Positions 95-60,538 of a stretch of DNA of 64,000 nt are shown here, piece after piece (position 1 is the stretch's first letter; every line of letters begins with the position of its first letter). Origin of the DNA: Mustelus asterias (lineage: Eukaryota). The stretch covers positions 1 through 64,000 of the forward strand of contig NW_027591794.1 of NCBI RefSeq assembly GCF_964213995.1, given 5' to 3'. The position numbers and the translations under genes are program-made. Under the pieces are notes generated by a model that saw nothing but the letters and a program-made list of their open reading frames with translations, was not told where the DNA came from and did no database searches.

Positions 95-460
95 TTTTAA
101 AATCAGGCTGTGTAACCGGTTAAAGCTCTTTCCACAGTCAGTTCACTGGAACACTCTGACTCGGGTGTGTGTGTGTCTCGGTGCTTTTCCAGTCACACTG
201 ATGTTTGAAATCTTTCCTCACCGCCAAAACAGAAAAACATTTCTCCTTCCACATTTAAAGGTCGATGATATTCAGGTTCTGATGAATTGAGTGACTCGAT
301 CAGCTCTTGATGTGATGTTTGGTTTCAGTTTCCCATCTGCAATTCATCGCCCTTGTGGACCTTGTAAAAGACATTGACAGAGTCAGTATCATTGTCAGCA
401 CAGGATAGAAAGTCAGAACAGACAATTCTCATTTCCATGGAATATTCTTTTCTCTTTTGT
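95..460 (-). pseudogene. ZNF gene remnant (intron end plus decayed-finger leader only; finger array absent)
   Basis: Reverse complement aligns by eye with the leaders at 32220-32600, 36760-36950, 45190-45450 and 59360-59620. Confidence 0.8.
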
Positions 461-4181: not shown

Positions 4182-4847
4182 AATTACTATCACAGACTAT
4201 GACTATCATATGTTACCAATCACCAATTGTCCTTTGTGATGGTGATAGTTGGCCTTCTTCTTGAACCTCTGCAGTCCGTAGGTGCTCCCACAATGCAAGA
4301 GTATTAGAATTTTAACCCAGTCACGTTGAAGGGACAGTGATATTTGTCCAAGTCAGGGAGTTGTGAGGTTTTCCCATGTCGCAGCTGCTCTGGTACTTCC
4401 AGGTGGGGAAGATTGTGGGTTTAGGAGATTCTGCCAAAATCCTGGTTGAGTTGCTGATGTATAAAATCTCTCTCCGTCACCCTCCTCCCGACCTCTCCCT
4501 CTTCACGCATAAAGGCTGGATTCTTGTTGTTGGCTCTGAAGAGGTGGAGGGTTCCTTTCCCTCAGTGCATTGGTAAACAGTTTGAGGCTTTGTCACAATC
4601 CAGCAGCTTTCATATCCACTATTTCCTAGTCCCAATCCCACAATTTACCAGATTAGATCAACTCAGTTTCACATTTTGTCTTTGTATATTTATGGCTTGT
4701 CTCTCATGTTTCCCACTTTCTGTTTTCAATTCATTTTTCAGGGGATTAGAAGGTGAGGAATTACAGAAAATTGTAAATCAAGGATCACATCAAGATCAGA
4801 CAGGGAGCTTTGATTCATCAGGATCTGAACATCATCGGCCTTTGAAC

Positions 4848-6137
4848 ATGGAAGAAAAATGCACCGTTCACAGAGAGGAGACACTGTACATGTGTTCTGT
4901 ATGTGGACAAGGCTTCAATCGATCATCTGGCCTGTCGAGACACAAGCGCAGTCACACCAGGGAGAGACCGTATAAATGTGGAGACTGTGGGAAAGGATTC
5001 AATTATCCAGTTGACCTGCAAAATCACCAACGCACTCACACTGGAGAGAGACCTTTTAGCTGCCCTGTGTGTGGGAAGGGATTCACTCAGACAGCTGGCC
5101 TGTTGATTCACCAGCGCATTCACAGCAGGGAGAGGCAGTTCACCTGCTCCGAATGTGGAAAAGGATTTACTCAGTCATCGGCCCTGCTGATACATCGGCA
5201 CATTCACACAGGGGAGAGGCCTTTCACCTGCTCTGAGTGTGGGAAGGGATTCACAGATTTCTCTGCCCTGCAGAGACACCAGCGAGTTCACACCGTCAGG
5301 AGAGAGTTTTAATGCACTGAGTGTGGAAAGAGTTTTAAAACTCCACGCACACTGCGGGAGCACCAGTACATTCACACCGGTTCCACACCGTTCAGCTGCT
5401 CCCACTGCCAGAAGGGGTTCAGGACATCATTCCACCTTGTGGCACATGAGCGCATTCACACTGGAGAGAGGCCATTCACCTGCTCTGAATGTGGGAAGGG
5501 ATTTAACCGATCATCCAACCTGCAGAAACACCAACGAGTTCACAGTGAAGAGAGACCGTTTAAATGTCCAGAGTGCGGGAAGGACTATAAAAGTTCTGAG
5601 GAACTACGTCACCATCAACGTGTTCACTCTGACGAGAGACCATTCACATGCTCTCACTGCGGGACTGGCTTCAGGCGATCAGGCGACCTCACTGTACACC
5701 AGCGAATTCACACTGGGGAGAGGCCGTTCACCTGCCCTGTGTGTGGGAAGGGATTCACTTGTTTATCCTCTCTCACTTCACACCAACTTGTTCACACAAA
5801 TGAGAGACCGTTCAAATGTTCTGACTGTGAGAAGAGCTTTAAAAGCAGAAAACTTCTGCTCGCACACCAGCGAAATCACTCTGAGGACAAACCGTTCACC
5901 TGCACTGAGTGTGGGAAAGGATTCACCCGGTCATCCACTCTGCTGAGACACCAACAAGTTCACAGTGAGGAGAAGCCGTTCACTTGTTCAATGTGTGGAA
6001 AGGGATTCACCCAGTCACACAACCTGGTGAGACACCAACAAGTTCACAGTGAGGAGAAGCCGTTCACTTGTTCAATGTGTGGAAAGGGATTCACCCAGTC
6101 ATACAACCTGGTGAGACACCAGCGAGTTCACCAGTGA
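4848..6137 (+). CDS. ZNF-A: C2H2 zinc-finger gene, 15 fingers, interrupted by one in-frame TAA (5310-5312) after finger 5
   Basis: Acceptor ttttttcag at 4741; ATG 4848 (MEEK); ORFs 4524-5312 and 5439-6137 are in the same frame and the gap translates [21 protein letters not shown]; AATAAA at ~6284 and ~6356. Confidence 0.88.
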
Positions 6138-15855: not shown

Positions 15856-18298
15856 TGAATGGAGGAAGAGTTCTTAGAATGCTGTCGGGATAGTTTCCTT
15901 GAACAGCATGTTACGGAACCGACGAGGGAACGAGCTATTTTGGATCTGGTATTGTGTAACGAGGTAGGTAGAATTAAGGATCTTATTGTGAAGGACCCTC
16001 TTGGGTCTAGTGACCACAATATGGTCGAATTTCTGATTCAGATGGAAGAGGAGAAAGTTTGGTCCCAAACCAGTGTCCTCTGTTTGAACAGAGGGAAATA
16101 TGATAGGATGAGGGATGAATTGGCTAAGGTAGACTGGGAGAGCAGGCTGGCAGGTAGGATAGCTGAGGAACAGTGGAGGATTTTTAAGGAGATCCTTTTC
16201 AGTTCTCAGCAAAAATATATTCCAGCAAAAAACAAGGATTGTAAGAAAAGGGAGAACCAGCCGTGGATAACGAAGGAAATAAAGGAGAGTATTAAAATAA
16301 AAACAGCTGCGTACAGAGTGGCCAAAAATAGTGGAGAAACAAGTGATTGGGAAAAATTTAAGAAACAACAAAGAGAGACTAAGAAAGCGATAAAGAAAGG
16401 AAGGATAGACTATGAAGCTAGGCTAGCAATTAATATAAAAAATGATAGTAAAAGTTTTTATAAATATATAAAAAGGAATAGAGTGGCTAGAGTGAATGTT
16501 GGACCCTTGGAGGACGAGAAGGGGGAGTTAATAGTGGGAAATGAGGATATGGCTGAGTCTTTAAATAAGTTTTTTGTGTCGGTCTTCACGGTGGAGGACA
16601 CAAATAGTTTGCCAAATATTAACGATAGAGGGTTGGCAGCAGGAGAAATACTTAATACAATTAATGTAACCAGAGAGGCAGTGCTGGGTAGACTAATGGG
16701 ACTGAAGGTGGACAAGTCCCCGGGTCCGGATGGAATGCATCCCAGGGTATTGAAAGAAATGTCAGAGGTAATAGTGGATGCGTTAGTGATTATTTATCAA
16801 AACTCGTTGCATTCTGGGGTAGTGCCGGTTGATTGGAAAACGGCTAATGTTACGCCGCTGTTTAAAAAAGGAAGGAGACAAAAGGCGGGTAACTATAGGC
16901 CGGTCAGCTTAACGTCTGTAGTAGGGAAAATGCTGGAATCCATTATTAAAGAGGAGATAGCAGGGCATCTGGATAGAAATGGTTCGATCAATCAGACGCA
17001 GCATGGATTCATGAGGGGAAAGTCGTGCTTGACGAACATGTTGGATTTTTATGAAGATGTGACTAGGGCGGTTGATGGAGGAGAACCGGTGGATGCGGTG
17101 TTTTTGGATTTCCAAAAGGCGTTTGATAAGGTGCCCCATAAAAGGCTACTGAAGAAGATTAGGGCACACGGAGTTGGGGGTAGTGTGTTAAAGTGGATTG
17201 GGGACTGGCTATCCGACAGGAAGCAAAGAGTCGGAATAAATGGGTGTTTTTCCGGTTGGAGGAAGGTAACTAGTGGCGTGCCGCAGGGATCGGTACTCGG
17301 GCCGCAACTATTTACCATTTATATAGATGATCTGGAGGAGGGGACGGAGTGTAGGGTAACGAAGTTTGCAGACGACACAAAGATAAGTGGAAAAGTGAAT
17401 CGTGTGGAGGACGGAGAAGATCTGCAGAGAGATTTGGACAGGCTGAGTGAGTGGGCGAGGATATGGCAAATGGAGTATAACGTTGAGAAATGCGAGGTTA
17501 TACACTTTGGAGGAAATAATAACAAATGGGATTACTATCTCAATGGAAACAAATTAAAACATGCTACCGTGCAAAGGGACCTGGGGGTCCTTGTGCATGA
17601 GACGCAAAAGCCCAGTCTGCAGGTACAACAGGTGATCAAGAAGGCAAATGGGATGTTGGCCTATATTGCGAAGGGGATAGAATATAAAAGCAGGGATGTC
17701 TTGATGCACCTGTACAGGGCATTGGTGAGGCCGCAGCTGGAATACTGTGTGCAGTATTGGTCCCCTTATATGAGGAAGGATATATTGGCATTGGAGGGAG
17801 TGCAGAGAAGGTTCACCAGGTTGATACCGGAGATGAGGGGTTTGGATTATGAGGAGAGGCTGAGGAGATTGGGTTTGTACTCGTTGGAGTTTAGAAGGAT
17901 GAGGGGGGATCTTATGGAGACTTATAAGATAATGCGGGGGCTGGATAGGGTGGAGGCGGAGAGATTCTTTCCACTTAGTAAGGAAGTTAAAACTAGAGGA
18001 CACAGCCTCAAAATAAAGGGGGGTCGGTTTAAGACAGAGTTGAGGAGGAACTTCTTCTCCCAGAGGGTGGTGAATCTCTGGAATTCTCTGCCCACTGAGG
18101 TGGTGGAGGCTACCTCGCTGAATATGTTTAAAGCGCGGATGGATGGATTCCTGATCGGTAAGGGAATTAAGGGTTATGGGGATCAGGCGGGTAAGTGGTA
18201 CTGATCCACGTCAGATCAGCCATGATCTTATTGAATGGCGGGGCAGGCTCGAGGGGCTAGATGGCCTACTCCTGCTCCTATTTCTTATGTTCTTATGT
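15855..18298 (+). mobile_element. Young CR1 LINE insertion
   Basis: Open ORF, many CpGs retained, 3' hairpin tail ending (ttcttatg)2. Confidence 0.93.
15859..18204 (+). CDS. CR1 LINE ORF2 (end of APE endonuclease plus reverse transcriptase), 5'-truncated, uninterrupted 781 aa
   Basis: LDLVL...GSSDHN, KSPGPDG, NYRPVSLTS, FLDFQKAFDKVPH, GVPQGSVLGP, KFADDTK, WNSLP motifs. Confidence 0.95.
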   Translation: MEEEFLECCRDSFLEQHVTEPTRERAILDLVLCNEVGRIKDLIVKDPLGSSDHNMVEFLIQMEEEKVWSQTSVLCLNRGKYDRMRDELAKVDWESRLAGRIAEEQWRIFKEILFSSQQKYIPAKNKDCKKRENQPWITKEIKESIKIKTAAYRVAKNSGETSDWEKFKKQQRETKKAIKKGRIDYEARLAINIKNDSKSFYKYIKRNRVARVNVGPLEDEKGELIVGNEDMAESLNKFFVSVFTVEDTNSLPNINDRGLAAGEILNTINVTREAVLGRLMGLKVDKSPGPDGMHPRVLKEMSEVIVDALVIIYQNSLHSGVVPVDWKTANVTPLFKKGRRQKAGNYRPVSLTSVVGKMLESIIKEEIAGHLDRNGSINQTQHGFMRGKSCLTNMLDFYEDVTRAVDGGEPVDAVFLDFQKAFDKVPHKRLLKKIRAHGVGGSVLKWIGDWLSDRKQRVGINGCFSGWRKVTSGVPQGSVLGPQLFTIYIDDLEEGTECRVTKFADDTKISGKVNRVEDGEDLQRDLDRLSEWARIWQMEYNVEKCEVIHFGGNNNKWDYYLNGNKLKHATVQRDLGVLVHETQKPSLQVQQVIKKANGMLAYIAKGIEYKSRDVLMHLYRALVRPQLEYCVQYWSPYMRKDILALEGVQRRFTRLIPEMRGLDYEERLRRLGLYSLEFRRMRGDLMETYKIMRGLDRVEAERFFPLSKEVKTRGHSLKIKGGRFKTELRRNFFSQRVVNLWNSLPTEVVEATSLNMFKARMDGFLIGKGIKGYGDQAGKWY

Positions 18299-19194: not shown

Positions 19195-19583
19195 TGTGGA
19201 GATGCCGGCGTTGGACTGGGGTAAGCACAGTAAGTAATCTCACAACACCAGGTTAAAATCCAACAGGTTAATTTAGTAGCATAAGCCACAGGCTTTCGGA
19301 GCGCTGCCCCTTCATCAGGTGAGTGGGAGTTCTGTTCACAAACAGGGCATATAAAGACACAAACTCAATTTACAAGATAATGGTTCGAATGCGAATTTAC
19401 AGGTAATCGAGTCTTAAAGGCACAGACAATGTGAGTGGAGAGAGGGTTAAGCACAGGTTAAAGTGATGTGTATTGTCTCCAGCCAGGACAGTGGGTGAGA
19501 TTTTGCAAGCCCAGGCAAGTCGTGGGGGTTACAGATAGTGTGACATGAACCCAAGATCCTGGTTGAGGCCGTCCTCATGTGTG
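19195..19583 (-). mobile_element. Penelope-like 3' part with hammerhead-like motif (~19288-19323)
   Basis: Minus strand cacCTGATGAaggggcagcgctccGAAAgcctgtg. Confidence 0.85.
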
Positions 19584-19830
19584 ATTGACAGATCCATGCT
19601 CATTGCTTCCTGTCCTGGACGCAGAGAGCTGAAAATCTCCATGCAGGCTGCCAGACAGATAAATGTCTACATTACTGGAGTAAAAATGTGTGGAATATAC
19701 AGACCAAATTCACTTCATTCCCTACAGTTGCTGCAAGTCCCCAATTTCCCCCAGAATGAGAAAAGAAATGGAAAGGGGGAAACATTGATTTCCTCCCAGA
19801 TGTTGCCCAGAGGAGGAAGTTTCACTCTGA
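19583..19830 (-). pseudogene. Remnant 5' exon/intron of a minus-strand ZNF gene whose coding exon is not present
   Basis: Close match to 32701-32930, upstream of ZNF-C. Confidence 0.7.
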
Positions 19831-20300
19831 AGCTCATTGGACAACTTGCGCATTGTGACGCCACGATAGAGTCCTCCCTGAATCAGCCAAGAGGAATCAC
19901 TCTGCTCCGCGGTGATGTCTCCGGGTTCCAGTGCGCAGGCCCGGGCGCGCGGACCCGGGAGCCCCGCCCCCACCCATTGTTCCCCTCCCCCAACACCACA
20001 TCGAGCCAAGGTTTCCAGGCACCGGCTGACGGCCCTGGCCAGAGCGAGAAGCCGCTCGGTGAGCTCCCCCTCCCCCCGGCCCGGGACTGCGCATGTGCGA
20101 GGGAGAGGGGAAGCTGCGCATGTGCGGGGGAGAACCCACCCTCTGATCTTCATGCTGAGGTGTTGACCAATGGGAAGAGTTGGAGGACCGGAAGGACTCC
20201 GGTCTTCCAGCTAATCAGAGCGTGGACTTTGTGTGAATGAAGATTGATCTTCAGACAGACTCAAACTTCCTACCCTTAAAAGAGGCCAACATTTGTGAGT
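19830..20300. promoter_or_regulatory. CpG-island bidirectional promoter and ZNF-B exon 1 (P3)
   Basis: Two tgcgcatgtgcg NRF1-like sites (~20087, ~20115), CCAAT ~20167, donor gtgagt ~20295; paralogous to 34760-35140. Confidence 0.75.
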
Positions 20301-20655
20301 GAAACACTTTCTTTTCAACCCCCTTTCCATTTCTTTTCTCATTCTGGGGAAATTAGGGACTTGCAGCAACTGAAGGGAAAGGAAGTGAATCCAGGGAAGG
20401 TGCAGACTCTGGAAAGGTTGGCCCAGGTCTCTCTCTCTTTTCAGCTTTTGGGGAATGAGAGAGGAAAGAATGTTCCAATGAAATTGTCTGTTCTGAATTT
20501 CTATCCTGTACTGACACTGATGACTTTTGTAAACTCATTTTACAGGACATTGAAAGAGGAATCACAGGCTGAAATCTCAAACGCCACGTCTCGATCTGAC
20601 AGAGTCATATTCCTTGGGACCTCAATATCATCGGACTTTGAATCCAGAAGGAGAA

Positions 20656-20703
20656 ATGATTGTCCAGTCTGTCGATTTGAAAAGATTTGAAATGTCAGTG
20701 TGA
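20656..20703 (+). promoter_or_regulatory. 15-codon uORF (MIVQSVDLKRFEMSV*) in ZNF-B leader
   Basis: ATG and TGA positions shared with paralogous leaders at 240-193, 32381-32334 and 59480-59527. Confidence 0.6.
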
Positions 20704-20896
20704 GTGAAAATGCATCAACACACTGCCACACTCGAGTGAGTGTGTTCCAATGCACTGACTAAAGAGCTTTAACCAGTTACACAGTCTGAATAAATATCAC
20801 ACCATTCACAGCAGGTAGAGACTGTAATCTTGTTCTGTGTGTGGATGAAGTTTCAACTAATTGTCCACTCAAGAGAGAGGTAAGGACACCTGCACC

Positions 20897-22921
20897 ATGG
20901 AGAAACCATGGAAATGTGCGGACTGTTGGAAGGGATACGGAACCCCATCAGAGCTGGAAACTCATCGGCGCAGCCACACTGGAGAGAGGCCGTTCATCTG
21001 CTCTCCGTGTGGGAAGGGATTCAGTCAGGTTTCCAGCCTGCAGAGACACCAGCGAGTTCACACTGGAGAGAGGCCATTCACCTGCTCTCAGTGTGGGGAG
21101 GGATTCACTCAGTCATCTCACCTGCAGACACACCAGCGAGTTCACACTGGAGAGAGGCCATTTACCTGCTCTCAGTGTGGGAAGGGATTCACTCGGTTAT
21201 CCAGCCTGCAGATACACCAGCGAGTTCACACTGGAGAGAGGCCGTTCACCTGCTCTCAGTGTGGGAAGGAATTCACTCATTTATCCAGCCTGCAGTCACA
21301 CCAGCGAGTTCACACTGGAGAGAGGCCATTCACCTGCTCGCAGTGTGGGAAGGGATTCACTCAGTCATCCCACCTGCAGACGCACCAGCGAGTTCACACT
21401 GGAGAGAGGCCATTCACCTGCTCGCAGTGTGGGAAGGGATTCACTCAGTCATCCCACCTGCAGACACACCAGCGAGTTCACACTGGAGAGAGGCCATTCA
21501 CCTGCTCGCAGTGTGGGAAGGGATTCACTCAGTCATCCAGCCTGCTGACACACCAGCGAGTTCACACCGGGGAGAGACCATTCACCTGCTCTCAATGTGG
21601 GAAGGGATTTACTCAGTTATCCCACCTGCAGACACACCAGCGAGTTCACACTGGGGAGAGGCCATTCACCTGCTCTCAATGTGGGAAGGGATTCACTCAT
21701 TTATCCAGCCTGCGGACACACCAGCGAGTTCACACTGGGGAGAGACCATTCACCTGCTCTCAGTGTGGGGAGGGATTCACTCAGTCATCCACCCTGCAGA
21801 AACACCAGCGAGTTCACACTGGGGAGAGGCCATTTACCTGCTCTCAGTGTGGGAAGGGATTCATTCAGTTATCCAGCCTCCAGAGACACCAGCGAGTTCA
21901 CACTGGGGAGAGGCCATTCACCTGCTCTCAGTGTGGGAAGGGATTCACTCAGGTATCCAACCTGCGGGCACACCAGCGAGTTCACACTGGGGAGAGGCCA
22001 TTCACCTGCTCTCAGTGTGGGAAGGGATTTACTCAGTTATCCAACCTGCAGACACACCAGCGAGTTCACACTGGGGAGAGGCCGTTCACCTGCTCTCAGT
22101 GTGGGAAGGGATTCACTCGGTCATCCGACCTGCAGGCACACCAGCGAGTTCACACTGGGGAGAGACCCCCATTCACCTGCTCTCAGTGTGGGAAGGGATT
22201 CACTCGGCCATCCAATCTGCAGACACACCAGCGAGTTCACACTGGGGAGAGACCGTTCACCTGCTCTCAGTGTAGAAAGGGATTCACTCTGTCATCCCAC
22301 CTGCAGACACACCAGCGAGTTCACACTGGGGAGAAATCCCCATTCACCTGCTCTCAGTGTGGGAAGGGATTCACTCGGTCATCCAATCTGCAGACACACC
22401 AGCGAGTTCACACTGGGGAGAGGCCATTCACCTGCTCTCAGTGTGGAAACGGATTCACTCAGTTATCCAGCCTGCGGTCACACCAGCGAGTTCACACTGG
22501 GGAGAGGCCGTTCACCTGCTCTCAGTGTGGGAAGGGATTCACTCGGTCATCCGACCTGCGGGCACACCAGCGAGTTCACACTGGAGAGAGGCCATTCATC
22601 TGCTCTCAGTGTGGGCAGGGATTCACTCAGTTATCCAGCCTGCGGACACACCAGCGAGTTCACACTGGGGAGAGGCCGTTTACCTGCTGTGTGTGTGGGA
22701 AGGGATTCACTCAGCTATCCAACCTGCAAACACACAAGCGAGTTCACACAGGGGAGACGCCGTTCACCTGCTCTCAGTGTGGGCAAGAATTCACTCAGTC
22801 AGCCGACCTGCAGAGACACCAGCGAGTTCACACTGGGGAGAGGCCGTTCACCTGCTCTGTATGTGGGAAGGGATTCAGAGTTTCATCCGAGCTGCTGAGA
22901 CACCAGCAAGTTCATGAGTGA
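20897..22921 (+). CDS. ZNF-B: intact tandem C2H2 protein, 24 fingers, no KRAB/SCAN/BTB seen
   Basis: accATGg start MEKPWKC; 84-bp repeats with HTGERPF linkers; acceptor ttttacag ~20546. Confidence 0.93.
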
Positions 22922-31396: not shown

Positions 31397-32143
31397 TCAC
31401 TGGTGTTGCCGCAGGTGGGATGATGTTCTAAATCTCTTTGTGCAGTGAGAGCAGCTGAACGGTCTCTCCTCAGTGTGAATGCGCTGGTGAATCATCAGTT
31501 CCCGAGAGCTTTTGAAACCACTTCCACAGTCAGAACATTTAAAGGGTCTCTCATTGGTGTGAGTGAGATTGTGGTTCAGCAGGCTGGATGACTGAGTGAA
31601 TCCCTTCCCACACACAGAGCAGGTGAACGGTCTCTCCCCAGTGTGAATTCGCTGGTGTATCCGCAGGTGGGATGATGTTCTAAATCTCTTTGAGCAGTGA
31701 GAGCAGCTGAATGGTCTCTCCCCAGTGTGAATGCGCTGGTGAATCATCAGTTCCCGAGAGCTTTTGAAATCACGCCCACAGTCAGAGCATTTAAAGGGTC
31801 TCTCATTGCTGTGAGTGACTTTGTGTTTTGACAGATTGGATAACTGCATAAATCCTTTCCCACACACCAAGCAGATGAATGGTCTCTCTCCAGTGTGAAC
31901 GCGCTGGTGTTTCTGCAGATCGGGTAAATGAGCGAATCCGTTCCCACACTCAAAGCACATGAACGCTCTTTCTCCAGTGTGAACCAGCCGATGTCGCTGC
32001 AGATGATATAACCGAGTGAATCTCTGCCCACACACAGAGCAGATGAATGGCCTCTCCCCAGTGTGAATACGTCGATGAATTTCCAGGTCACAGGGGGCTC
32101 TGTATCTCTTCCCACAGTCCCCACATTTCCACGGTTTCTCCAT
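31397..32143 (-). CDS. ZNF-C: C2H2 protein, 8 complete fingers, cut by a premature TGA in finger 9
   Basis: accATGg at 32143 (MEKPWKC); stop cag-TGA-gtt where paralogues have cag-CGA-gtt; one more finger and the family stop/3'UTR follow (~31300). Confidence 0.88.
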   Translation of the reverse strand: MEKPWKCGDCGKRYRAPCDLEIHRRIHTGERPFICSVCGQRFTRLYHLQRHRLVHTGERAFMCFECGNGFAHLPDLQKHQRVHTGERPFICLVCGKGFMQLSNLSKHKVTHSNERPFKCSDCGRDFKSSRELMIHQRIHTGERPFSCSHCSKRFRTSSHLRIHQRIHTGERPFTCSVCGKGFTQSSSLLNHNLTHTNERPFKCSDCGSGFKSSRELMIHQRIHTEERPFSCSHCTKRFRTSSHLRQHQ

Positions 32144-32958
32144 GGTGCGGGTGTCCTTGTGACTCTCCAGGTTAAACAATCAGTTAAATCTCACACAGAA
32201 TGTGGGTACAGTCTCTCCCTGCTGTGAATGCTGCGATGTATTTTCAGGCTGTGTAACTGGTTAAAGCTCTTTCCACACTCAGTTCACTGGAACACTCTCA
32301 CTCGGGTGTATCTGTGCCTTGGTACTTTTCCAGTCACATTGATATTAAAGGCCCGTTGATGCAGACAGAACAGGGAAACATTTCTCCTTCTAGATTCAAA
32401 GGCCGATAATATTCAGGTCCGGATGAATTGAGTGAGGGTGTCGGATGCTGATGTGATGTTTGTTTCAAGATTTTGGTCTGTCAATCCTCACCTCCTCATA
32501 TCCTGAAACGAGTTTGAAAAATTCATCAATGTCAGCACAGGATAGAAATTCAGAACAGACAATTCCAGTTTCTATGGAACATTCTTCCTCTCTCATTCCC
32601 CAAAAGCTGTAAATCTCCATCCCACACACTCTCCCTCCATTCTCACTCTGCTGTATCTAATATTCACCCTCCCAATTCTCCTGAAGGTGCTGATTGAGGC
32701 TGATTGACAGATCCATGCTCACTGCTTCCTGCCCTGGACACAGAGAGCTGGAAATCTCCATGCAGGCTGCCAGACAGATATATGTCTATCTGACTGGACT
32801 AACAATGTGTGGAATGTACAGACTGGATTCACTTCCTTTCCCTTCAGTTGCTGCAAGTCCCCAATTTTCCCCAGAATGAGAAAATAAATGGAAAGGGGGA
32901 GAAAAGAAAGTGTTTTACTCACAGATGTTGGCCTCTTTTAAGGTAAAAGAAGTGGCTT

Positions 32959-33029
32959 TGCCTTGTTCGGGAATCGAACCCAGGCCTCCCGCATGACAGG
33001 CAAGAATTCTACCACTGAACCACCAATGC
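32959..33029 (-). tRNA. tRNA-Gly(GCC)-derived pseudogene with anticodon changed to GTC
   Basis: gcattggtggttcagtggtagaattcttgcctGTCatgcgggaggcctgggttcgattcccgaacaaggca; A and B boxes intact, two acceptor-stem mismatches and a T-stem mismatch; ttctttt downstream. Confidence 0.88.
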
Positions 33030-33143
33030 ACAGGGCAGAGAAAACTGCTCAGTTCTTTCAACCAGTGCTTTCACATGCAAAGAAATGTTGATGATTTGCA
33101 GCAGCAAATTCAATGCTGCTAACACACACAACAACACTGTTGG

Positions 33144-34389: not shown

Positions 34390-35140
34390 ACTCACAGAGG
34401 TTGGAGACAGGAGGAAGATTGAATCTATCTGAAGCTCAATCTTTGTTCAGAGAGAGGAGGAGGATGAGCAGCAGTTTGTTGGACAAACAATGGAGGAACA
34501 TTCGTGCAGCCATTGACACAAGGCCCGGACTCTGACTGGCTGGAGGACCAGGGCTGATCCGGTCCTCCACGCATTGCCATTGGTCAATCTGCCGCATGTA
34601 GACAATAAGGGGCGGAACCCGAGCCCACGTGGGGGTGGGCGGGGCTTTGACCGCCAGCCGCACTGAGCTGGTGTCCAATCCGCAGTGTGCTGCTTCTGTA
34701 ACCAGTGATATTGCTGCCAATGGGACACTGCGTGCTGGGAACGCCCCTCTGAGTCATTGTGACGACTCAATCCAACAGCAATCACTCTGCTCCGCGCCAA
34801 CATCCTTGGATCCCAGTGCGCAGGCCCGGACGCCCGGACATGGGAGCCCCGACCCCACCCTTTGTACCCCCCTCCCCCGGCACCTCCTCGAGCCAAGGTT
34901 TCCAGGCACCCGGCCCTGAGGGAGAGGGGAAACTGCGCATGTGCAGGGGAGAGCCCGCCCCCTGACCTTCACGCTGAGGTGTTGACCAATGGGAAGAATT
35001 GGAGGACCGGAAGGACTCTGGTCCTCCAGCCAATCACAGGACGGGCTTTGTGTGAAAGAAGATTGCGCTTCAGACTGACTGAAACTTCCTCCTGTTTGTT
35101 TATTTGGTTTGACCTTAAAAGAGGCCAACATCTGTGAGTA
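34390..35140. promoter_or_regulatory. CpG-island bidirectional promoter with first exons for ZNF-C (minus) and ZNF-D (plus) (P4)
   Basis: Donors gtgagt at 34395-34390 (minus) and 35134-35139 (plus); tgcgcatgtgc, several CCAAT and GC boxes. Confidence 0.75.
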
Positions 35141-35214
35141 AAACACTTTCTTTTCTCCCCCTTTCCATTTCTTTTCTCATTCTGGGGGAAATTGGGGACT
35201 TGCAGCAACTGATC

Positions 35215-36510: not shown

Positions 36511-37054
36511 CTATTTGTTCTGACCTCGCTGTCCAGGACAGGAAGCAGTGAGCATGGATCTGTCATTCATCCTGAATCAGCACCATCAGGAGTGTTGGGT
36601 GGCTGAATGTTAGATCCGGCAGCGTGAGAATGGAGGGACAATGTGTGGGATGGAGATTTACAGATTTTCATTAATGACAGAGGAAAGGATGTTCCCATAG
36701 AAGCGAGAATTGTCTGTTCTGACTGTGATGTTTTTTGTAAATTGTTTTTAAAGGATATCAGAAGAGGAGGAATCACAGACAGAAATCTCAAATGTCACAT
36801 CTCGATCTGACAGAGTCACGATCTGTCGGCTTTAAAAGATTTCAAACATCAGTGTGATTGGAAAAGCACCGAGACACACACACACCTGAGTGAGAGTGTT
36901 CCAGTGAACTGACTGTGGAAAGAGCTTGAACCAGTGACACAGCCTGAAGAGATATCACACCATTCACAAAAAAGAGCAACTGTACCTGTGTTCTGTGTGT
37001 GGATGAAGCTGCAACTGATCGTCCAACCTGGAGAGACACAAGGACACCAGCACC

Positions 37055-38068
37055 ATGGAGAAACCATGGAAATGTGGGGACTGTGGGAAGGAATTCAGGT
37101 TTTCGTCACAACTGGAAATCCATCAGCGCATTCACACTGGGGAGAAGCCATTCACCTGCTCTCAGTGTGGGAAGGGATTCACTCAGTCATCCCACCTGCT
37201 GACACACCAGCGAGTTCACACTGGAGAGAGGCCATTCACCTGCTCTCAGTGTGGGAAGGGATTCACTCGGCTATCCTTCCTACAGTGCCACAAGAGAGTT
37301 CACACTGGAGAGAGACCATTCATCTGCTCTCAGTGTGGGAAGGGATTCACTCAGTCATCCCACCTGCAGACACACCAGCGAGTTCACACTGGAGAGAGGC
37401 CATTCACGTGCGCTGAGTGTGGGGAGGGATTCACTCGGCTATCCTTCCTACAGTCCCACAAGCGAGTTCACACCGGGGAGAAACCGTTCACCTGTTCTCA
37501 GTGTGGGGAGGGATTCACTCAGTCATCCCACCTGCGGATACACCAGCAAGTTCACACCGGGGAAAAACCGTTCACCTGCTCTCAGTGTGGGGAGGGATTC
37601 ACTCAGTCATCCCACCTGCGGATACACCAGCAAGTTCACACCGGGGAAAAACCGTTCACCTGCTCTCAGTGTGGGGAGGGATTCACTCAGTCATCCTCCC
37701 TGCTGATACACCAGCGAGTTCACACCGGGGAGAAACCGTTCACCTGCTCTCAGTGTGGAAAGGGATTCAGTTATTCATCCCACCTGCGGGTACACCAGCG
37801 AGTTCACACTGGGGAGAGGCCATTCACCTGCCCTCAATGTGGGAAGCGGTTCAGTGATTCATCCCATCTGCGGAGACACCGACGAGTTCACAGCGGGGAG
37901 AGGCCGTTCACCTGCTCTGTGTGTGGGAAGGGATTCACTGATCCATCAACCCTGCAGAGACACCAGCAAGTTCATACTGGGCAGAAGCCATTTATCTGCT
38001 CCAAGTGTGGGAAGAGATTCCCTCTCTCATCCCAGCTGCTGACACACCAGAGAGTTCACACTGGGTAG
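37055..38068 (+). CDS. ZNF-D: C2H2 protein, 12 fingers up to an in-frame TAG
   Basis: accATGg MEKPWKC; stop replaces the linker Glu (ggg-TAG-agg). Confidence 0.88.
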
Positions 38069-45189: not shown

Positions 45190-45803
<614 letters not shown>

Positions 45804-51689: not shown

Positions 51690-52445
51690 TTACACATGAA
51701 GTTGCTGGTGTCTCAGCAGGTAGGATGACCGAGTGAATCCCTTTCCACATTCGGAGCAGGTGAATGGTCTTTTCTTGGTGTGAGTGCGCTGGTGTACAGT
51801 GAGTTCAGATGACTGCCTGAACCCAGCCCCACAGCTGGAGCACCTGAACGGTATCTCGTCAGAGTGAACTCGCTGATGGCAAATCAGATCCCAGCGTCTT
51901 TTATAACACTTCCCACAGTCCAGACATTGGAAAGGTCTCTCGTCAGAGTGAACTCGCTGATGGCACATCAGATCCTCAGAACCTTTAAAGCCCTTCCCAC
52001 ACTCCTGACATTTAAATGGTCTCTTGTCTGCGTGAACTCGCTGATGTCTCAACATGTTGGATGAATCAGTGAATCCTTTCCCACACTTGGGGCAGGTGAA
52101 TGGTTTCTCCAAAGCGTGAACTCGCTGGTGCTTCAACAGGTTGGATAAATCATTGAATCCTTTCCCACACACAGTACAGCTGAATGGCCTCTCCCCAGTG
52201 TGAACTCGCCGGTGTCTCAGCAGGCTGGATAAATCACTGAATCCCTTCCCACACTCGGAGCAAGTGAAAGGTTTCTCAGCGTTAGTGCGTTGATGGATTT
52301 CCAGCTCAGATGGGGAACAAAATGACTCCTTCCAAGTGTGAAGACATTTATGTTGCGACAAGCCTGAGGATCGACTGAAGCCTCGTCCACACACAGAACA
52401 GGTGTACGGTTTCTCCCCACTCTGAACGGTGCTTTTTCCTTCCAT
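51690..52445 (-). CDS. ZNF-F: C2H2 protein, 8 complete fingers plus one internally deleted finger
   Basis: Acceptor ttttatag at 52555; ATG 52445 (MEGK); first finger RSSGLS as in ZNF-A. Confidence 0.88.
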
Positions 52446-59357: not shown

Positions 59358-60538
59358 GGATATTAGAAGGAGAGAATTTACAGACTGAAATCTCACACCA
59401 AACGTCACAACAAGATGTTACAAAGTCACTGGATTCATCAGGACCTGAATATAATTGCCATTTGAATGTATGAGAAGAAATGTTTGTTTGTTCTGTCTGT
59501 GGGAAAAGATTTCAAACATCAGTGTGACTGGACAAGAATGGAGACCCCACACACTTGAGTGAGAGTGTTCCAGTGAACTGACTGTGGAAAGAGCTTCAAC
59601 CAGTAACACAGCCTGAAAAACGTCACCCCATTCACAGCGAGGAGAAACTGTACACGTGTTCTGTACTTGGATGTGGAATCGACTGATTATCGAAAGGACA
59701 CTGGCACCATGGAGACACCATGGAAGTGTGGGGACTGTGGGAAGGGATTCCAGTGCCCATCTGCACTGGACACACTGGCGAATTCATACTGGGGAGAGGC
59801 CGTTCACCTGCTCCGTGTGTAGGAAGGGATTCAGTATATCAACCACCCTGCTGAGACACCAGCGAGTTCACTCTGGGGAGAGGCCGTTCACCTGCTCTGT
59901 GTGTGAGAAAGGATTCACTCAGTTATCCAGCCTGCTGACGCACCAGCGAGTTCACACCGGGGAGAGACCTTTCGCCTGCTCAGACTGTGGGAAAGGATTC
60001 AGTGATCGTTCCACCCTGTGGAGGCACCAGCGAGTTCACTCTGGGGAGAGGCCGTTCACCTGCTGTGTGTGTGGGAAGGGATTCAGTCATTCATCCACCC
60101 TGCAGACACACCGTGTCACCCACACGAATGAGAGACCGTTTAAATGCTCTGACTGTGGGCGTAGCTTCAAAAGCTCTCAGACTCTGATGGGCCACCAGCG
60201 CATTCACACTGAGGACAGACCGTTCAGCTGCTCTTACTGCGTGAAGAGATTTAGAACATCATCCCAACTGCTAATACACCAGCGAGTTCACACTGGGGAG
60301 TCACCCTGTGTGCGGGAAGGGTTTCAGTCATTCATCCACCCTGTTGGCACACCAGCGAGTTCACACTGGGGAGAGGCCATTCACCTGCTCTGTGTGCGGG
60401 AAGGGATTTACTCAGATCTCCAATCTGCTCACACACCAGCGAGTTCACACTGGGGAGAGGCCGTTCAGCTGCTCTGACTGTGGGAATAGATTTAAACGGT
60501 CGTCTCACCTGCTAAGACACCAGCGAATTCACAAGTGA
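59358..60538 (+). pseudogene. ZNF-G: frameshifted C2H2 gene (~10 fingers)
   Basis: ATG 59709 (METPWKC) is out of frame with downstream fingers (shift ~59772); second shift by deletion at ~60300; family stop and 3'UTR. Confidence 0.85.

Follow-up and report, generated by a model that had tools for sequence, protein, structure and literature searches.

The leader that stands before a subfamily of tandem zinc-finger (ZNF) genes in sharks is probably a fossil: three N-terminal fingers that died, carrying an upstream open reading frame (uORF) that was inherited with them and is incidental, in a cassette that was copied in a burst and has drifted since. We read the retention of the uORF's start and stop codons, at low power, as indistinguishable from inheritance, and within the leader a block of 60 nucleotides in the second dead finger alone departs from drift and needs its own explanation. 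The anatomy is real and shark-wide, among genes that represent one variant of the usual tandem ZNF type.

The window (the whole stretch of DNA that we analyzed, 64,000 nucleotides) holds seven arrays of C2H2 fingers joined by TGEKP-type linkers, ZNF-A to ZNF-G, and one further leader copy, R, at its left edge; this is a shark tandem C2H2 zinc-finger cluster. ZNF-B (main frame 20897–22921, plus strand, 674 amino acids) has 24 C2H2 fingers, all 24 matched as zf-C2H2 stretches in Pfam, and, alone among the copies with a leader, keeps its finger frame uninterrupted. ZNF-C (31397–32143, minus strand, 248 amino acids) meets a premature stop in finger 9; ZNF-D (37055–38068, plus strand, 337 amino acids) stops after finger 12 of 17; ZNF-E is a pseudogene; and the main frame of ZNF-G, which begins at 59709 and reads METPW, is frameshifted in finger 1 and ends after 37 codons. 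About 75 nucleotides from the edge a repeat has inserted into copy R, so the rest of its gene may lie outside the window. ZNF-A (4848–5312, plus strand, MEEK start, without dead fingers 1 and 2, stop after 154 amino acids) and ZNF-F (51690–52445, minus strand, MEGK start, 251 amino acids) are of a short-leader type, and in both the frame is open from acceptor to ATG (4743–4847, plus strand, in A; 52553–52446, minus strand, in F, where shifts compensate for one another); relatives showed no conserved coding domain upstream.

The 24 fingers of ZNF-B (20897–22918) are near-identical except at the DNA-contact positions, a uniformity pointing to recent tandem amplification within an old gene. A Pfam scan of ZNF-B found no effector domain, and KRAB is absent among the 25 of 29 Pfam families listed for it, as it is for the exon start of ZNF-A; nor did Pfam find KRAB in the relatives P0060 and P0078. 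Between ZNF-A and ZNF-B lies a 781-codon reading frame without zinc fingers (15859–18204, plus strand), parts of which match other repeats of the window.

The leaders occupy 20546–20896 in ZNF-B, 36754–37054 in ZNF-D, 45190–45552 in the pseudogene ZNF-E and 59359–59708 in ZNF-G (all on the plus strand), and 32144–32502 in ZNF-C and 76–361 in copy R, which the repeat insertion cut short (both on the minus strand). The ZNF-B leader follows a ttttacAG acceptor and is made of an old linker and three decayed C2H2 fingers, as the preliminary description of this DNA had proposed: with TGA translated as X, Pfam weakly recognizes zf-C2H2 in each of the three former fingers (E values of 1.5e-4, 6.8e-5 and 3.4e-5), the matches all falling just below the curated cut-off. 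A late in-frame stop precedes the main start in five copies (TAA at 20858–20860 in B, 39 nucleotides ahead of the main ATG; 32182 in C; 37016 in D; 45515 in E; 59684 in G), and the main start itself lies inside a former linker, as ATG in B, C, D and G and as ACG in E (45553). ZNF-A and ZNF-F start instead at ttgaacATGgaa (4848 and 52445), where the other copies read cca, cta, gtg or gta. The earlier proposal that the subfamily had turned its N-terminal fingers into a translational control leader survives in part: the first three fingers are dead, and selected control is the part that we could not uphold.

Position 20546 is the first base after the acceptor, which A and F have by homology, and the leader is therefore probably the start of the last exon. 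A putative promoter, first exon and donor (GTGAGT, 20295–20300) of ZNF-B, drawn by consensus, occupy 20088–20300 on the plus strand, a stretch common to D (34918–35212) and in part to C (32943–32823). The exon-1 donor and the first ~100 nucleotides of the intron are 93–97% identical among copies (20274–20394, 32943–32823, 35108–35212 and 19708–19808) whose leaders are ~78% identical. What look like back-to-back promoters lie at 19580–20300 and 34410–35210, where B and D each have a second, minus-strand exon-1-like copy just upstream; the copy at 19808–19582 has no finger array nearby. Directly upstream of the exon-1 donor block of C sits a degenerate tRNA-like element (32958–33030, minus strand; Asp-GTC by ARAGORN, 41.8 bits in Rfam), the sole tRNA-like match of Rfam in the window, the body of which we take to resemble tRNA-Gly.

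The coordinates and peptides first given for the six uORFs all hold. In ZNF-B the 15-codon uORF (20656–20703, plus strand) begins one residue ahead of the F-x-C in dead finger 1, and its TGA sits within the helix of that finger; uORFs of the same length stand at 32334–32381 (minus strand) in C, 59480–59527 (plus strand) in G and 240–193 (minus strand) in R. In the leaders, then as AUG in the RNA, such a start and an in-frame stop precede the main start. ZNF-D lost the original ATG to a deletion and has a replacement at 36792, a site that is ACG or ACA in the other copies, in frame with the TGA at 36855–36857; ZNF-E kept its ATG (45309), and its stop has changed to GGA (45354), so that the frame runs on to 45392. 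A uORF in all six copies, as originally claimed, exists under a loose definition only, and the exact 15-codon form is found in four of six; moreover, "all six" takes in a pseudogene (E), a frameshifted gene (G) and an edge-truncated copy (R). Likewise, the ends of the uORF are common, as had been said, and free variation between fixed ends is not what lies between them: the peptides derive by decay from a single ancestral one, nearly unchanged in G.

Other upstream ATGs are present as well, for a total of 5, 3, 2, 6 and 6 in the complete leaders of B, C, D, E and G. The second one in D (37003) opens an out-of-frame reading frame across the main start. It belongs to a second common upstream ATG ~40–52 nucleotides before the main start (20845, 37003, 59671), which is ACG in E and looks CpG-derived; in G, the ATG at 59671 opens a frame of 268 codons that runs through the downstream fingers and could circumvent the frameshift of that gene.

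Are the two ends of the uORF kept better than they need be? The upstream ATG is kept in all five copies where the site exists, and the stop in five of six. Retention against neighboring triplets is the check that the preliminary description had itself proposed, and it shows no clear excess: B, C, E, G and R jointly cover 256 leader triplets, of which 47 survive as well as the ATG (in all five) and 130 as well as the stop (in at least four). Comparing the start codon with other triplets is the test used in PMC7889888, and by it the start codon here does not rise above the rest. Neutral simulation at the observed rates agrees, giving ATG in at least five of six copies with P=0.19 and the stop with P=0.33; at least four exact uORFs come with P=0.031, a loose uORF in all six with P=0.065, and the most flattering joint test (at least four exact and a loose one in six) with P=0.009, all of these tests being post hoc, with the uORF chosen from three consensus ATGs and the joint definition fitted to the data. 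Of arbitrary triplet pairs 45 nucleotides apart, 18 of 152 survive in at least four of six copies. ATG and stop retention is thus not clearly above chance.

The six leader copies form a star tree, with end branches of 0.11–0.17 changes per site and inner branches of at most 0.014, none well supported. Pairwise identity is 0.766 for the leader, 0.765 for the intron end, 0.71 for the 3'UTR (four copies) and 0.706 for the uORF body, which falls below the leader mean and shows no purifying selection on the peptide. The exact uORF is present in broken G and truncated R and absent from D, with its 12 readable fingers. Six copies give little power, so selection on the uORF is unproven, not excluded.

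How old is the lesion? The named leader or linker relatives are shark proteins, from Pristiophorus, Heterodontus and Carcharodon, and relatives of the finger arrays include Heptranchias and Mustelus. The linker that opens the exon occurs in 22 of the 301 proteins compared; by inspection, 13 of them belong to the leader type and 8 to the A/F type, and the remaining 1 is in another frame. P0056 and P0060 of Pristiophorus, P0078 of Heterodontus and P0240 share the M and stop precisely at FQTSV, the Pristiophorus and Heterodontus models with the common ending ...EGEMFVCS..G.RFQTSV*, and P0239 of Carcharodon terminates at the late stop. Pristiophorus belongs to the squalomorphs and Heterodontus to the galeomorphs, and since both groups carry the upstream ATG and its stop, the two predate the split between Squalomorphii and Galeomorphii. 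Across the 13 leader-type relatives the residue at the upstream ATG is M in seven and I or K in three, with three more set aside for a gene-model join on the site; the stop is kept in four, read as W in two, deleted in one and uninformative in six. A bias towards open frames in this external set leads to an overcount of ATG and stop losses, and the set can date the lesions and cannot test selection.

Other searches added little. A search with a read-through of fingers 2 and 3 gave 45 matches from 47 candidates, mostly generic ZNFs, with two sharks, one of them informative; a short-protein search gave 4 matches from 26 candidates and no new relative. We considered and rejected the idea that a conserved coding exon further upstream extends the frame of the uORF: the sequence ahead of the linker differs among gene models, and Pfam matched nothing in P0060 and P0078. 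The models P0004, P0046, P0048 and P0056 fuse the leader with neighboring ZNFs, repeats or histone H2A, and names and exon structures of the leader family in public models are unreliable.

The history that we favor, as probable, would run as follows. In an early shark, stops and a frameshift would have killed the first three fingers of a founder gene, and translation of that gene would have moved to a start in the linker ahead of finger 4. The cassette—first exon, intron end, leader, fingers and 3'UTR—would then have been copied in a burst, each copy drifting by ~11–17%. The upstream ATG would be a Met codon left over from dead finger 1, and the TGA would be a lesion of the founder, both inherited rather than independently kept. 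Substitution in cartilaginous fish is slow (PMC8455134), and long passive survival is therefore plausible.

What would such a leader do in a cell? Scanning, leaky initiation and reinitiation after a short uORF belong to the general mechanism of translation. The short first exon is probably spliced to the leader acceptor, which would place the leader in the mRNA. The upstream ATG has a moderate context (a purine at -3, no G at +4), the main start a strong one (accATGg), and 182–197 nucleotides separate the uORF from the main start. Some scanning ribosomes would start at the upstream ATG, make 15 residues and reinitiate at accATGg, and others would leak past; the result would be a passive dampening of output, tolerated by these genes, and it would differ between copies because their other upstream ATGs differ. 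Against the fossil reading we count the four exact uORFs and the joint test (P=0.031 and 0.009), the lack of any frame-shifting indel inside the 48 nucleotides in five of six copies, the retention of the leader in all six (it is deleted in none) and a block that is not drifting freely.

The main start has its own irregularity. An EKPW-type motif matched 31 times among the collected proteins, and at leader-type starts the residue is M in 11, T in 7 and I in 1, a tally made by inspection (a stricter script tags 7, 5 and 1) that leaves out 2 ambiguous rows and 10 of other type. Set against random loss of ATG, T is over-represented (P=0.003, relatedness ignored). In relatives the main start is nearly always M or T, a pattern noted for the window starts at 20897, 32143, 37055, 45553 and 59709 and the proteins P0048, P0062, P0082, P0095, P0170, P0179 and P0202. 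The main start may be a CpG-containing ACG that turned to ATG repeatedly, or ACG may be tolerated as a start; if either is true, the ACG of ZNF-E is not itself a lesion.

The block is where drift fails. It begins ~30 nucleotides past the uORF stop, at 32244–32303 (minus strand, one mismatch) in C, 36888–36947 (plus, two) in D, 45387–45446 (plus, one) in E, 59557–59616 (plus, two) in G and 103–162 (minus, two) in R; the copy in B (20734–20789, plus) is the most diverged, with four substitutions and a 4-nucleotide deletion. Mismatches number 12 in 356 cells of the block against 317 in 2091 in the rest of the leader, which makes the block about four times less diverged than the remaining leader, and none of 20,000 column permutations did as well. 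The low divergence also shows at non-CpG columns alone (11/338 against 241/1832) and separately in each of the six copies, the pairwise identity of 0.934 exceeds that of the best 60-nucleotide windows of the 3'UTR (0.844) and the intron (0.867), and a full match occurs at six places only in the window. The block is not coding, because D and G gained stops in it and B lost four nucleotides.

Does selection hold the block together? We consider it possible, and offer it tentatively, that the block is a selected cis-element acting at the nucleotide level, an idea compatible with a relic uORF. By analogy its most likely form would be a site for a DNA-binding factor that marks the last exons of the family, with a site for a small RNA or an RNA-binding protein as the alternative. 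The low divergence, the permutations, the identity beyond the best intron and 3'UTR windows and the exclusion of coding constraint all speak for it, as do the relatives that stay close: P0004 (Heterodontus) differs at 2 of 18 codons, P0181 at 0 of 11 with the stop read as W, and P0297 at 2 of 20 by inspection, its uORF region being much diverged. There is also a precedent in mammals, where motifs of ZNF274 lie in ZNF last exons (PMC4939920). Less comfortably, the block is damaged most in B, the sole intact gene; among relatives, P0239 of Carcharodon has no block excess (3/18 against 5/28) and P0046 differs at 3 of 13; and neither a stable RNA structure (z from -0.09 to +1.86, covariation term +0.53), nor an Rfam family (a chance AniS match in leader E, E=1.2, was the only one), nor a pairing partner was found, pairing with the conserved intron stretch after the donor being weaker than shuffles in three of three genes. 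A selenocysteine reading of the Cys-to-TGA codon (UxxC) was rejected, the frame holding other stops and frameshifts, as were a U12 branch point and an IRE, both by eye against consensus motifs.

That recent gene conversion homogenized the paralogues, leaving a tract without function, strikes us as rather unlikely. A codon for Cys in B, P0004 and P0239 is TGA in five of the six otherwise star-like copies, the block is directly preceded by a run of AC dinucleotides, and the exon-1 donor region is likewise homogenized (94–97%). Conversion, however, requires that tracts on both strands end at almost the same points in all six copies; relatives from other orders stay close to the block at the protein level, and Cys in external proteins is expected from their open-frame bias.

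We think it quite improbable that the uORF is a selected control element, tuning reinitiation or nonsense-mediated decay (NMD), with its position kept and its peptide free. The ATG stands in five of five copies and the stop in five of six around one of the least conserved parts of the leader (0.706), which is the pattern reported for functional uORFs in PMC7889888; the simulation leaves a weak excess (P=0.03 and 0.009), and the same ATG and stop occur in squalomorph and galeomorph sharks. A short uORF followed by a spacer of ~190 nucleotides suits reinitiation. Yet retention is not above that of neighboring triplets and arbitrary pairs do as well in 18 of 152 cases, the uORF was chosen post hoc, it is kept in dead copies and lost in several relatives, and the set of other upstream ATGs differs from leader to leader. 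Equally unlikely is it that the leader or its uORF is missing from the mature mRNA, through an alternative acceptor or an internal start site, and so irrelevant: the models P0070, P0095, P0170 and P0048 do join the linker straight to the HKD.. linker or to later fingers, joins that may be gene-prediction artefacts bridging stops, whereas the acceptor is common to A and F, and an internal sense-strand acceptor appears in one of six leaders (G, 59637) in a crude pyrimidine scan that also failed on the main acceptor of B, D, G and R.

How does the leader compare with what is known? Vertebrate tandem C2H2 clusters (PMC10547256) also have clustered paralogues, fingers in one last exon, many pseudogenes and birth-and-death evolution; unlike them, the proteins scanned here show no effector domain (KRAB, SCAN or other), and the N-terminal fingers are dead and upstream of the start. 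Shark members are auto-annotated "zinc finger protein 239/271/850-like." The words "shark," "cartilaginous" and "uORF" are absent from the main text of PMC10547256, and no description of the leader was found in a search, at the level of abstracts, of the open-access literature on shark ZNF clusters and ZNF uORFs.

For the uORF, the closest known systems are those conserved in position with a free peptide (PMC7889888). Reinitiation of the GCN4/ATF4 type is of this kind. Such uORFs share with ours a short AUG-initiated frame, a free peptide, a long spacer and a strong main Kozak context; they differ in that start retention here is not above that of other triplets and that a paired inhibitory uORF common to the copies is absent. 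For the block, the nearest analogy is the ZNF274 system, in which ZNF274, TRIM28, SETDB1 and ATRX bind motifs in ZNF 3' exons (PMC4939920): there, too, a nucleotide motif lies in finger-derived last-exon sequence throughout a ZNF family, yet that is a mammalian KRAB system on coding fingers and this is one non-coding 60-nucleotide candidate block. Control of ZNF coding regions by miR-181a (PMC2978345) offers a second analogy of family-wide control through finger-derived sequence, with many short coding sites there and one long leader block here.

Put at its boldest, the idea would be that of a shark-wide ZNF subfamily in which a selected 60-nucleotide element, lodged in a dead finger of the non-coding leader, directs a DNA-binding factor or a small RNA to the whole family, so that KRAB-less ZNFs are co-regulated or heterochromatinized together, and in which the uORF and a CpG-switched ACG/ATG start set a low, tunable output; we regard this as doubtful, and as worth stating. 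More plainly, the leader is a clean example of how inherited start and stop codons mimic a conserved uORF, and it matters for annotation, since automated models in several sharks mistranslate its frames or bridge its stops. If the block is functional, it would give a handle on the co-regulation of a large KRAB-less zinc-finger family in cartilaginous fish.
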